From: a virus
Taxonomy: Duplodnaviria > Heunggongvirae > Uroviricota > Caudoviricetes
Virus record (IMG/VR): IMGVR_UViG_2778261545_000004
Length of the DNA stretch: 40,808 bases
Reading direction: 5' to 3' (one strand)
Shown here: positions 4,416-35,813 of the stretch, piece by piece
Position numbering within the stretch: position 1 is the first letter of the stretch
Layout of the letters: every line of letters starts with the position of its first letter
Notes under the pieces: generated by a model
Told to the model about the DNA's origin: nothing
Database searches by the model: none
Seen by the model: the letters and a program-made list of their open reading frames with translations, nothing else
Translations under genes and position numbers: made by a program

Positions 4416-4778
4416 TTAACGACCTGCTGCGCGGAGTTTTCCGTCAGGTTCACCGGCAAGAGTCAGTAACTGTCCCTGGTCTTCCTGCAGAATAGTCAGG
4501 CGACCACCGCGATTGACATACATCGGCGTTTCGGTGGTGTCTTCTTCGGAAATTTTCCCGCGGTTAGTCGGGCGAACATATGAGAGTTTGTGTTTGATTT
4601 TCACACGGTTCTCATCAAATGGTTCGATTTCCAGGTTGAGTGAGACCTTACCTTTGGTTTTCGTGTTCATCACACCGGAAGCGACTTCACTGAGAACTGC
4701 GCCGATTTTGGTTTCAAATACGCCGCCGTCCAGCTCCCCGATAAATGCCTGCACATCAGTACTGCGTTCGCTAGCCAT
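4416..4778 (-). CDS. YfdP-like small prophage protein
   Basis: 120 aa from ATG 4776-4778 with GAGGAG 7 nt upstream; the ORF-track extension to 5096 is rejected. Confidence 0.5.
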   Translation of the reverse strand: MASERSTDVQAFIGELDGGVFETKIGAVLSEVASGVMNTKTKGKVSLNLEIEPFDENRVKIKHKLSYVRPTNRGKISEEDTTETPMYVNRGGRLTILQEDQGQLLTLAGEPDGKLRAAGR

Positions 4779-4789
4779 TTTGCTGCTCC

Positions 4790-5110
4790 TCATCATATCG
4801 ACCCTGCAAGGCCGATTAGTTTCTCCACAAAACAGAGAAGAACACCTGCGGTGGCAGCCGCCCGGATGGATTGGGTTATGAGCCCGTCGTCCGGTGATGC
4901 TCTTCTCTGTTTTGTAAAAAGGACGGTACCAGCCGGAAGCAAGGGTACAAACTGGTACCGCCAGGACTACACACAGCATAAAGTTGTGGTGCCGGGTGCC
5001 TCCCGGTGCCTGGCGAAGGTTGCACACCAGGCGGGTGGGTATCCACAGAAGGTCGACTGTCAGCCTCAACCTTAACCCGCGTGCGCTGAGCCGCATTCAC
5101 CACAACGCTA
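4790..5110. other. GC-rich non-coding block with nested perfect inverted repeats (candidate structured RNA or DNA element)
   Basis: 14-bp perfect inverted repeat CAAAACAGAGAAGA / TCTTCTCTGTTTTG (4827-4840 and 4901-4914), 9-bp inverted repeat CGGTACCAG / CTGGTACCG (4924-4932 and 4952-4960); ORFs open in several frames but none protein-like. Confidence 0.3.
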
Positions 5111-5179
5111 AGGATTCTCTCTGGTTGAAAATACTTAGCTGTTATGTGCCTGCTTTTAGCCACATCAGGCGAGGTGGAC

Positions 5180-5231
5180 CTGGTTATTCCCCAACAACAA
5201 GGATTCGGTTAATCTGGTTATCCCCAACAAC
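5180..5231 (+). repeat. Direct repeat pair CTGGTTAT(T)CCCCAACAAC upstream of the 5247 moron
   Basis: Copies at 5180-5198 and 5214-5231, 34 bp apart, 15-65 nt upstream of the ATG. Confidence 0.6.
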
Positions 5232-5246
5232 GCAAAAGGAAAAGAA

Positions 5247-5681
5247 ATGTCCGGTAATATCTATACGCTGTACAAATCCCACTGTGAAAATGTTGGAAAG
5301 TATCGGGGCATTGAAATCAGTGGGGTAGTGTCATCAGTCGAAATAAGCAAAGTTGAATCAAGGGCAACATTACTTACTCTTTTGGACCTTGTCTTACATG
5401 AGCACCGGAAGAAATTCGGCACTCCCTATAATCAGTTGAATGGGAAAAAGGCTCTGGTTCACCTTATTCTGATGAAGCATCACTGGATGCCAAAACAGAT
5501 TAATGAGATGAAATTTGATGAACTTCTTCTTTCAATTCAGGATGAACTCACACTTGATAAAATAAGCGTAACCGCCCAGAAATTTTTAGATTATCGAGAC
5601 TGGAGATCACAAATTCATCACTTTGATGATTTTGACGAAAATGAATGGGATCCTAATTTGTCTGCACAATATCTAAAGTAA
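5247..5681 (+). CDS. Hypothetical protein, 144 aa (opposite-strand moron in the early-left region)
   Basis: AAGGAAAAG RBS, AT-rich, transcribed against the leftward early operon; no family recognised. Confidence 0.55.
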   Translation: MSGNIYTLYKSHCENVGKYRGIEISGVVSSVEISKVESRATLLTLLDLVLHEHRKKFGTPYNQLNGKKALVHLILMKHHWMPKQINEMKFDELLLSIQDELTLDKISVTAQKFLDYRDWRSQIHHFDDFDENEWDPNLSAQYLK

Positions 5682-5859
5682 CATCCTGTGATAAAACCGT
5701 GATTTCCTGATCCAGTTTTTTTAAGGAGTCTATTGTTTCCTGTCGATAAGACAGCACTTCACGAAGCTGGTTTATAGCTGCCAGCTTCTTTGTCATCCAC
5801 TCATAAATTTCCTCATCTGTGTAGCCAGGCGCGACGATTTTGGGTTCTGTTTTGTGCAT
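5653..5859 (-). CDS. Small hypothetical protein, first gene of the leftward early operon
   Basis: 68 aa from the ATG preceded by AGGAG with 7-nt spacer; convergent 29-nt overlap with the 5247-5681 gene. Confidence 0.4.
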   Translation of the reverse strand: MHKTEPKIVAPGYTDEEIYEWMTKKLAAINQLREVLSYRQETIDSLKKLDQEITVLSQDVTLDIVQTN

Positions 5860-5918
5860 TTCACATCTCCTCAAGTTATCAGTTACTTGTTGATGGGGAC
5901 CAGATTGTTAAAGAGCTA

Positions 5919-5945: not shown

Positions 5946-6107
5946 CTAACGAATCATCCTGGACTTCATATGCCCCAGGCGGCTACTTCGTGGGCGTCCT
6001 GCCTGTTCGTTTTTGACATTTACTGACTGCTTACGACACATGCACCGTGTTGCAACCAGATTTTGTTGTAATCCTGTAGTTGGTCTGGAACAAAAGATAA
6101 AATTAAA

Positions 6108-6143
6108 TTGCGAGATATGCAAGTGATATTTGCGAGATATGCA
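6108..6143. promoter_or_regulatory. OL-like operators: two copies of TTGCGAGATATGCAA
   Basis: Identical 15-mers at 6108-6122 and 6129-6143, centres 21 bp apart, between the repressor 3' end and the leftward genes. Confidence 0.45.
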
Positions 6144-6152
6144 AATTTATAG

Positions 6153-6178
6153 GTAATAAAAAGCCACCTTTCGGTGGC
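6153..6178 (-). terminator. Rho-independent terminator downstream of the repressor gene
   Basis: On minus strand GCCACC-GAAA-GGTGGC followed by UUUUUAUU, immediately after the stop at 6199. Confidence 0.6.
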
Positions 6179-6198
6179 CGATGGATGGGATATTGAGG

Positions 6199-6891
6199 TT
6201 AATTATGTCTCTTAAGGGTTTGCGACTGACTGATTAAGACCTTTCCAAAGACCATGAATCGGTGTTCGTTTTCGCTAGTAATTCCCCATTCACGGTAAAT
6301 CTGGTTATCAGAAATCACCAGCAGTTTGTCAGGAATCATTTGAAGTCTTTTAACGTATATTTTGTCATCAAAACCAAAGACATATATACCATCACCATCA
6401 AACTGATTGATGCTGACATCAACGAAGATGAGATCTCCTGGCTCAATGGTTGGACACATACTGTCCCCACGAACGTTGATAACTTTGATGTGATTGGCTG
6501 GTCGTCCGCCGAACATTGATACAGCATTATCAGTTCTGTATTCGATGGCATGAATCACATCAATGACATCACCGCCCTGGATAAGGCCATTTCCCGCACT
6601 GGCACTGATATCCAGCATTTCAATACGGAACACATCCTTCACCTGCGCAACATCCTCATTATTACTGTTTTTATATACAGTATTACTTTTGTGGGCAGAG
6701 GTAAAGAGATCAGCAATATCAACACCTAAGCTCTTGGCAATATTACTCAGTGTTTGTTCGGTAAATTGTTTTTGCTTACCCGTTTCTAAGCGCGAGATGT
6801 TCGCCGCATCTACTCCTATCGCTTCAGCGAGATCGGCGATTTTCATGTTCTTCGCTTGGCGAAGTTGTCTGACTCGGTTTCCTATGTTCAT
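6199..6891 (-). CDS. CI-like prophage repressor (HTH domain plus S24 LexA-like autopeptidase domain)
   Basis: 230 aa; N-terminal HTH, C-terminal peptidase region with the conserved Ser (GDSMCP) and Lys (VKRL); divergent from a Cro-like gene. Confidence 0.9.
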   Translation of the reverse strand: MNIGNRVRQLRQAKNMKIADLAEAIGVDAANISRLETGKQKQFTEQTLSNIAKSLGVDIADLFTSAHKSNTVYKNSNNEDVAQVKDVFRIEMLDISASAGNGLIQGGDVIDVIHAIEYRTDNAVSMFGGRPANHIKVINVRGDSMCPTIEPGDLIFVDVSINQFDGDGIYVFGFDDKIYVKRLQMIPDKLLVISDNQIYREWGITSENEHRFMVFGKVLISQSQTLKRHN

Positions 6892-6911
6892 GCGTTTATT
6901 ACATTTCTTTA

Positions 6912-6974
6912 TTGCGTGATAAGCAAATCAACTTGCGCAAAATAATTGCGTGAAATAACATGCATAACGCGCAA
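6912..6974. promoter_or_regulatory. OR-like operator region between repressor and cro
   Basis: TTGCGTGATAAGCAA (6912-6926) and ATGCATAACGCGCAA (6960-6974) share the TTGC-N7-GCAA architecture of the OL copies. Confidence 0.45.
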
Positions 6975-35413: not shown

Positions 35414-35813
35414 GCCATTCAATATCGGGTGCTGTTGAAGTATCAACACGCATCAGCAGCACACGGTATTTCTTCCATTCGGTGAGAGTTGAAGTTTCTT
35501 CATCAGTTGCGATATCAGCATCAACAGCATCCTGACGCCAGGATATTTCACTGTCAGCTTTTTCCCGTAATTGGGATTTTTTAACTTCAGCAATAGCTAT
35601 TAATTCCTTTTTGGTCGGCTGAGGAATATCTATCAGTGCTGGTTTTCCATTCAGTGTTCCAATCTGTTTTCCTGGTGGAATATCCGTAAATAACTTTTTA
35701 TGTTCTTCCTCACTGACTATTACACCATCATCAGGCCACAGACCTGATGCCTCAAATTTTTCTTTCTCCGATATGGGGAAAAAGCCATTTGCTTTAGCGC
35801 TCCATACGTACAT
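35385..35813 (-). CDS. Alternative tail fibre assembly chaperone (inverted cassette)
   Basis: 142 aa, conserved C-terminus ([10 protein letters not shown]); convergent 29-nt overlap with tfa. Confidence 0.75.

Follow-up and report, generated by a model that had tools for sequence, protein, structure and literature searches.

A structured RNA, very probably of the STnc100/PasD family, at the entry to the early-left operon of a lambdoid prophage

The prophage RNAs STnc100 (RF02076) and PasD have been assigned a common ancestry and structure by Zhu, Shabalina and Storz (bioRxiv 10.64898/2026.05.13.724894), and their canonical relatives appear in the literature as abundant RNAs of ~160–210 nucleotides (nt). 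EDL933 expresses eleven STnc100 copies, one of them Northern-confirmed (PMC5331693), PasD, which is visible on Northern blots, depends on Hfq for its stability (PMC8550237), and PasD2 makes up 20% of CsrA chimera reads and is the top CsrA-bound RNA (bioRxiv 10.64898/2026.08.12.744399). Here we analyze the 40,808-nt DNA of IMG/VR virus record IMGVR_UViG_2778261545_000004 (Caudoviricetes; hereafter the window, meaning that whole stretch), an SfIV/SfV-type lambdoid prophage that originates from Shigella or E. coli and in which a GC-rich block at positions 4790–5110 precedes yfdP in the early-left arm. We show that the block is a non-coding, structured RNA locus on the minus strand and that its RNA is very probably a divergent, sub-threshold member of the STnc100/PasD family, organized around a pseudoknotted five-helix core.

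The family assignment draws first on the Rfam STnc100 model, which aligns over its full length (model positions 1–206) to 4914–5136 of the minus strand with 43.1 bits, below the curated gathering cut-off of 47 (E 1.2e-7 in a 1.4-kb search and 3.4e-6 over the whole window, where this is the sole such copy); a scan of the window with all Rfam families at their gathering thresholds returned zero matches. The motifs GGUGAAU, CUNNGCG and ACCGGGAGGCACCCGGCACC and the closing stem GGUG/CACC, common to STnc100 copies that score 51–126 bits, are all present in the window core. Folding of the minus strand goes beyond what base composition would produce, with z = −2.61 for 4910–5110, as against −1.24 for the plus strand, and −62.5 kcal/mol for 4776–4925 (z = −6.07), a value that none of 200 shuffles equalled. 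A preliminary description of the locus, made from the letters alone, had proposed a structured RNA or a protein-binding DNA element on the strength of a GC-rich composition and several inverted repeats; the first half of that proposal is borne out by the Rfam match and by compensatory and G-U changes among homologs, and the DNA element found no support. The composition it reported is real (0.55–0.575 GC in 200-nt windows over 4700–5199, flanks at 0.36–0.49), as are the perfect 9-base-pair (bp) repeat at 4924–4932/4952–4960, exact as described, and the further GC stems it mentioned, which we place at 4983–4991/5098–5106 and 5028–5036/5075–5083. Its perfect 14-bp repeat also exists, at 4827–4840/4902–4915, with a spacer of 61 rather than 60 nt, and is part of a longer inverted repeat than first described, whose 25-nt arms (4827–4851/4891–4915) are 84% complementary and lie 39 nt apart. 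What that description lacked is the minus-strand orientation, the identity of the 9-bp repeat as a terminator stem followed by UUUUU, the pseudoknotted core as the most informative part, and the division of the block into several separate elements (Table 1).

Table 1. Features of the RNA locus and its surroundings, with coordinates in the window unless another stretch is named by its number (L).
Feature	Position	Strand	Description
Core RNA	4983–5106	minus	124 nt; five-helix junction closed by helix P1, plus pseudoknot (Rfam, helix parse, covariation)
Helix P1, 5′ arm GUUGUGGUG	5098–5106	minus	pairs with CACCACAAC (4983–4991); followed by invariant AAU (5095–5097)
Hairpin Pa, UGCG-GCUCAG-CGCA	5082–5095	minus	loop motif CUNNGCG common to canonical STnc100
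Helix Pb, GGGU/ACCC	5075–5078 (5′ arm); 5033–5036 (3′ arm)	minus	
Pseudoknot 5′ strand AAGGUUG	5067–5073	minus	just 3′ of Pb 5′ arm; pairs with CAACCUU in Pd loop
Variable insert	5037–5066	minus	hairpin in most relatives; length 4–69 nt, sequence free to vary; followed by Pb 3′ arm
Hairpin Pd, GCCUGGUG/CGCCAGGC	5008–5032	minus	loop holds pseudoknot 3′ strand CAACCUU (5016–5022)
Hairpin Pf, CCGGG-AGGCA-CCCGG	4992–5006	minus	near-invariant family-wide; preceded by single A (5007)
Linker UUUAUGCUGUGUGUAGUCCU	4963–4982	minus	20 nt, single-stranded
Intrinsic terminator	4916–4962	minus	11-bp stem GGCGGUACCAG/CUGGUACCGUC, 19-nt loop, C + UUUUU
Long leader hairpin	4827–4915	minus	~27 bp, branched tip; perfect 14-bp repeat at its base
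Small hairpin AUCGGCCU-UGCA-GGGUCGAU	4797–4816	minus	just upstream of ribosome-binding site; from fold
Shine-Dalgarno GAGGAG and yfdP ATG	4786–4791; 4776–4778	minus	sequence, PGAP start, PHROG 204
yfdP	4416–4778	minus	120 amino acids (aa); left neighbor of block; followed by yfdQ (DUF2303) and a 5′-deoxynucleotidase gene
Upstream part of mobile module	5107–5177	minus	weak −10-like GAGAAT (5114–5119), 7 nt before P1
ECs1072-family gene	5247–5681	plus	divergent from block, with a short non-coding stretch between
Small gene	5653–5874	minus	73 aa; PHROG 1744
OL/PL operators	6105–6150		just left of cI terminator (6162–6179); TTGCGAGATATGCAA present twice
cI repressor gene	6199–6891	minus	
OR operators	6905–6960		between cI and cro; TTGCGTGATAAGCAA-type sites
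Canonical STnc100 arrays	L218 894–2010; L214 6323–7018; L207 6316–6725, 7739–7941; L246 690–1455; L134 5491–5933; L188 3539–4648		head-to-tail copies

The core follows one plan throughout the family: helix P1 and the AAU that follows it lead into hairpin Pa, helix Pb encloses the insert, Pd abuts Pb, and a single A precedes Pf, which runs directly into the 3′ strand of P1, while the 5–9 nt after the 5′ arm of Pb pair with the loop of Pd in a pseudoknot that is absent from the Rfam structure. The invariant GGTGAATGCGGCTNAGCGCACGCGG served as a search pattern on viral contigs (120 stretches reported) and a looser pattern was run on one genome per species (120 further stretches reported, among which the Enterobacterales matches are real copies); together they yielded a family set of 124 distinct copies. 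These fall into two classes, a canonical one starting with AAUCCCCCUNNGCGGNGGGG, whose sampled copies score 51–126 bits against the Rfam STnc100 model, and an “early” one starting with AAUGCGGCUNAGCGCACGCGG, which scores 33–43 bits and includes the window copy. In canonical copies CCCC/GGGG, or a variant of it such as CCUUU/AAAGG, encloses the CUNNGCG loop motif of Pa. Loop and junction nucleotides are near-invariant from Pantoea and Erwinia to E. coli, and the helices covary.

This covariation, the check that the preliminary description had called for, extends to nearly every stem. RNAalifold recovered four of the helices, P1, Pa, Pb and Pf, in 46 early-class sequences. All but Pa, which is invariant in this set and hence has no covariation of its own, show compensatory changes, and the middle pair of Pf is exchanged from G-C to U-A in 13 sequences. 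In a separate 44-row alignment (A3) P1 exchanges U-A, C-G and U-G (28, 13 and 3 rows, respectively), the Pf pair occurs as GC, UA and AU (38, 5 and 1), all four Pd pairs covary, and the number of pair types per column reaches 5–6 in all five pseudoknot columns and 4–6 over the pseudoknot and Pd columns together. The covariation score of the helix segments (44 rows, 71 columns) is 0.707; column shuffles give 0.166, with none of 500 reaching the observed value, and slid partners give at most 0.108. The alignment rows are mutually related, and neither these figures nor those of the shuffle tests below are exact probabilities. The 100% pairing in this alignment is partly by construction, with the Pd 5′ arm and the pseudoknot segments picked by complementarity, and the unbiased tests of structure are the within-sequence shuffles. 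For the pseudoknot, 40 distinct strand pairs occur family-wide and all are complementary, as exemplified by UGGUUAU/AUAACCA in phage P1, CAGUUAA/UUAACUG in Qin, GACUGAA/UUCAGUC and CUGGUGAU/GUCACCAG; 24 of the 40 reach p<0.05 (combined Fisher p 1e-23), and the 5′ strand begins 0–3 nt after Pb in 38. An initial version of this test with wide search windows saw 23% of shuffles reach 7 bp, and the final one used anchored windows. For the Pb and Pd stack, sequence anchors defined the 5′ arm of Pb and the 3′ arm of Pd, and 56 of 57 distinct variants pair better than shuffled interiors (p<0.05). As a separate observation, the minimum-energy fold of the window copy prefers a local 8-bp hairpin within 5038–5073 of the minus strand, in which the pseudoknot 5′ strand pairs with 5055–5062 (AAGGUUGA/UCGACCUU); judged by eye, this alternative appears unconserved in other subtypes.

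The same substitutions speak to the nature of the element. Several inverted repeats in the vicinity of an immunity region could suggest an operator or a recombination or replication site acting at the DNA level. The pseudoknot and the five helices, however, covary without conservation of stem sequence, and the phage operators are a different motif (TTGCG-N5-6-GCAA, identical in phage mEp460) that lies at 6105–6150 and 6905–6960 and is absent from 5120–5250. G-U pairs are moreover frequent in the helices, where the opposite strand would carry C-A mismatches; because such pairs work on the minus strand alone, they point to selection on an RNA read from that strand; the stronger folding of the minus strand likewise indicates RNA, and we regard a DNA-level element as highly improbable.

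A protein-coding origin has to be weighed as well, since open reading frames (ORFs) span the block in several frames and two of them are annotated in phage SfIV: SfIV_34 (226 aa), which would give yfdP a long N-terminal extension, and the plus-strand SfIV_35. The frame upstream of the yfdP homolog is open in Salmonella phage ST64B too. Yet no ORF overlapping the block has a Pfam or PHROG family, as the preliminary description had anticipated in reading none of them as protein, whereas yfdP, the ECs1072-family gene and the 73-aa gene each have one. The homologous cores range from 129 to 155 nt and differ by lengths that are not multiples of three, a 1-nt indel separates the window from ST64B within the conserved core, and the stem substitutions are compensatory. 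The prokaryotic genome annotation pipeline (PGAP) labels the region a frameshifted hypothetical pseudogene and, in a genome 100% identical over 4820–5145 of the window, starts yfdP at 4778; the PHROG 204 alignment begins at residue 1 of the protein so defined, with GAGGAG 7 nt upstream, in keeping with the start and the good ribosome-binding site that had been proposed. We therefore consider a coding function scarcely credible. The long open frames follow from the high GC content, SfIV_34 amounts to yfdP preceded by 106 spurious N-terminal codons that cross the RNA (4779–5096 of the minus strand; SfIV stretch L001 5717–6397), and SfIV_35, likewise spurious, covers the core on the other strand (4984–5328, plus strand; L001 6285–6629).

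Downstream of the core the locus continues in a linker, a terminator and two hairpins. The linker motif UGCUGUGUG(U/A)AGUC is kept in ST64B and in Cronobacter phage phiES15 while its flanks diverge, which makes the linker a candidate seed or Hfq-proximal region, and it places the terminator 20 nt after the core. The terminator has a heuristic score of −20.5 kcal/mol, contains the 9-bp repeat as the middle of its stem, is present in the minimum-energy fold, and coincides with the 3′ terminator of the Rfam STnc100 model, which aligns onto 4962–4916. In ST64B the same linker motif is followed, at the equivalent position, by a stem of other sequence, GUCGGCGUC/GACGCCGAC, and by the same CCUUUUUACA tail, the pattern expected of a conserved intrinsic terminator. 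The long leader hairpin is shared with ST64B at 84% identity; one G-C pair is clearly replaced by A-U in compensation, and several other changes are compatible with wobble pairing. Terminator, long hairpin and yfdP together form a module that also occurs, at 97% identity, in many phages without this core (mEp460, cdtI and Stx2c phages among them). The small hairpin takes the form ACCGACCU.../...GGGUCGAU in some relatives and in others the sequence differs from there on, which marks this point as a mosaic joint. Two further readings of this part of the locus were dropped: a DicF (RF00039) identity, which reaches 15.7 bits (E 2.7) with the terminator alone matched and is thus at chance level, and a riboswitch-like competition between Pd and the terminator through CGCCAGG/CCUGGCG, which is available in the window copy and not conserved in phiES15 or ST64B.

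Relatives of the core were found in a number of settings. BLAST against phage genomes places it in ST64B (87% identity), where cI and a yfdP-like gene flank it as well, in phiES15 (76%), ahead of kil, and in the ban operon of phages P1 and SJ46 (2504–2623 of stretches L004 and L008), ~30 nt before tciA; in P1-like phages this operon also contains three tRNA genes and a dicF-like region. In Qin-type prophages it sits directly between DicF and dicB, and E. coli K-12 MG1655 accordingly holds an early-class core in its 174-nt dicF-dicB spacer (NC_000913.3 ~1649450–1649584; stretch L252 251–385), with a 14-bp closing stem, the pseudoknot CAGUUAA/UUAACUG and an STnc100 score of 34.4 bits (E 1e-5). 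The RefSeq record of this strain has no annotation in the spacer, and a search by terms in the text of a recent study of dicBF regulation met no mention of a structure there. The Qin-type spacer, at a coverage of at least 80%, is present in 3925 of 5426 complete E. coli genomes (~72%) and the window type in 1825. The idea that RNase III cuts at the P1 stem of the core to create the 3′ end of DicF was abandoned, RNase III and RNase E being reported to make the 5′ ends of DicF. Canonical copies are followed by a terminator within 160 nt in 28 of 56 cases and show a sigma-70 promoter scoring at least 8/12, with its start site at the first base of P1, in 18 of the 56. They also occur in head-to-tail arrays of 2–4 copies ~250–330 nt apart, two of these loci lying directly downstream of tRNA genes.

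In light of this architecture and of the published data on the relatives, we favor, as a somewhat better than even proposition when taken as a whole, a terminated, trans-acting small RNA of the STnc100/PasD kind, combined with a terminator that limits the early-left genes and a leader hairpin; the mechanism of a terminated, trans-acting small RNA by itself we place slightly short of an even chance. The core would be transcribed from the right, either from its own weak promoter immediately before P1 or by read-through from the early-left promoter PL (~6100–6150), and most polymerases would then halt at the terminator to leave a folded RNA of ~190–220 nt that includes the single-stranded linker and ends in a U tail. 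Such a build is the usual one for an Hfq-dependent small RNA. Because core, linker, terminator and U tail match the canonical relatives, an RNA of this size ending at 4916 appears the likeliest product. Once released it would act in trans, as is thought for PasD and STnc100, and the terminator would also limit transcription into yfdP, yfdQ and yfdR. Read-through transcripts would carry the long hairpin, which probably governs how the yfdP message is processed or how stable it is; its likeness to the lambda N leader makes a role as an RNase III-type substrate plausible.

Several observations weigh against this proposal. The function of the STnc100/PasD family is not established in the literature cited here, the window copy scores below the STnc100 cut-off, and its Pa hairpin is unlike that of canonical STnc100. 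A search of the window for sites complementary to the linker returned just its own complement and one chance match. No convincing promoter for the window copy was found in a consensus scan of 5107–5250, and a second scan gave at best 6/12 with the start site at P1; GAGAAT occupies the position where canonical copies have their −10, with no convincing −35 element before it. PL/OL lies ~1 kb to the right of the block, with the 5653–5874 gene and the convergent ECs1072-family gene in between. Finally, 56 of 67 early-class copies have no terminator and stand directly ahead of an ORF, 20–30 nt before the ribosome-binding site of dicB, tciA or kil, so the core may work in cis or via its fold and not as a released base-pairing RNA.

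The position of those early-class copies lends weight to a cis-acting leader, in which the folded core would alter terminator read-through as the put RNA of HK022 does, attenuation, or the translation or stability of the next gene and so gate the early-left operon. The phage moreover has no N-like gene ahead of its early-left genes, and mEp460, a phage of the same immunity, has a PL that leads through ~300 nt of leader into a diverged core relative and then into the same terminator and long hairpin as in the window. That relative (2352–2495 of stretch L006), to which Rfam is blind, keeps the P1 frame GUUGUGGUGAAUGCG ... CCGGAGAUCAGCACCGGUCACCACAAC and has CCGG-AGAUCAGCA-CCGG as its Pf-like hairpin. 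The Qin-type core, however, sits after the DicF terminator and not before it, the alternative pairing of Pd with the terminator is not conserved in the alignments with phiES15 or ST64B, and canonical relatives are free-standing genes whose own terminator yields abundant ~200-nt RNAs, which is the opposite of antitermination. Similarity to the put sites is nil for putR and at chance level for putL, and the architecture differs. On balance we hold the cis-acting leader to be distinctly improbable; a put-like antiterminator in particular is unlikely given the lack of put similarity, the single copy, the position after DicF and the efficient termination in relatives.

A further alternative places the activity in the fold itself, as a stable RNA that would bind or titrate CsrA, Hfq, an RNase, a tRNA-acting defense nuclease or a ligand, the genomic context merely driving its expression. 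The tight five-way junction with linkers of 0–3 nt, the pseudoknot and the near-invariant loop and junction nucleotides are in line with such a role, as are the tandem arrays, the positions beside phage tRNA genes and the rank of PasD2 among CsrA-bound RNAs. On the other hand, the neighboring genes are not conserved, and the likeness to tRNA is one of topology alone, unsupported by ARAGORN and Rfam, and we judge this explanation fairly unlikely for the window copy. Its generalization, that the family is a widespread class of phage RNAs acting by shape to bind or titrate a host factor or ligand rather than as ordinary base-pairing small RNAs, is possible though rather doubtful. If true, it would mean a fold as elaborate as that of a riboswitch or ribozyme, with its five-helix junction, pseudoknot and invariant loops; it would cover canonical STnc100 and PasD, the dicF-dicB spacer including that of K-12, and the ban leader of phage P1; and it would imply three deployments: in genes standing on their own, in tandem arrays next to tRNA genes, and in modules that precede toxic early genes.

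As for the wider locus, the window is 99.2% identical to SfIV and 98% to SfV over 4700–5300, and the right edge of the core module is set at 5177, the point beyond which SfV, SfII and others are no longer similar. Between the RNA element and the ECs1072-family gene a direct repeat, CTGGTTATYCCCCAACAAC, occupies 5180–5198 and 5214–5232 of the plus strand and may be a regulator binding site for the divergent promoter region. Elsewhere in the window, 35434–35617 of the minus strand gives a sub-threshold match to IS009 (RF02111) over the full model length (54.9 bits, cut-off 117, E 6e-10). The right arm of ST64B carries a C4 antisense RNA (79.7 bits) and isrK (64.3 bits) at 409–597 of the minus strand of stretch L005, without a counterpart in the window; a C4/P4 CI immunity RNA (RF01695) was likewise discarded as an identity for the block, the window having no match to it at E ≤0.05.

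The head of the early-left operon thus loses two spurious annotations of proteins, SfIV_35 and the extension in SfIV_34, and gains an RNA gene, a terminator and a leader hairpin, which bears on how early-left genes are controlled in a lambdoid phage without N protein. For the STnc100/PasD family, the analysis adds a conserved core of five helices and a pseudoknot, not captured by the present Rfam model, as well as a very common sub-cut-off early subclass that fills the unannotated dicF-dicB spacer of K-12 and the ban operon of phage P1. The role of an abundant prophage RNA can thereby be probed through a defined, mutable structure in standard laboratory strains.

Among known systems, the lambda N leader, in which a long RNase III hairpin lies between the early promoter and the first gene, resembles the window in having a long, near-perfect hairpin a few dozen nt upstream of the ribosome-binding site of the first early-left gene; the likeness is one of position and shape alone, a nut site and an N gene not being found in the window. 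The put RNAs of HK022, cis-acting antiterminators downstream of PL and PR, are similarly structured and located near the start of the early-left transcript of an N-less lambdoid phage with a terminator downstream. They differ in having two hairpins instead of a five-helix pseudoknotted junction, local alignment equals shuffles for putR and is marginal for putL, and the window holds one core copy, with none on the PR side by Rfam scan, whose relatives terminate efficiently. PasD1 and PasD2 of enteropathogenic E. coli, compared here by description only, are reported to share ancestry and structure with STnc100 and provide the sole functional data for the superfamily, namely Hfq-dependent stability and heavy CsrA association; unlike the window RNA, they lie in late regions near Q and LpxR. 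With STnc100 itself the window core has in common the closing stem, the helix order, the three sequence motifs, a terminator after the core and the prophage location. It departs from STnc100 in its Pa (UGCG-GCUNAG-CGCA, as against CCCC(C)-UNNGCGGN-GGGG in the canonical first hairpin), in lacking a clear promoter of its own, and in heading the early-left arm, where canonical copies are described from the late region near Q, stx, esterase and holin. The Qin dicF-dicB spacer and the tciA leader of phage P1 differ in running without a terminator straight into the ribosome-binding site of a cell-division inhibitor gene, and the Qin copy follows the DicF terminator and has a P1 of 14 bp rather than the 9 bp of the window; both nevertheless belong to the same early subclass, are identical to the window copy in the first 25 nt after P1 (GGUGAAUGCGGCUNAGCGCACGCGG), and adopt the same pseudoknotted fold.

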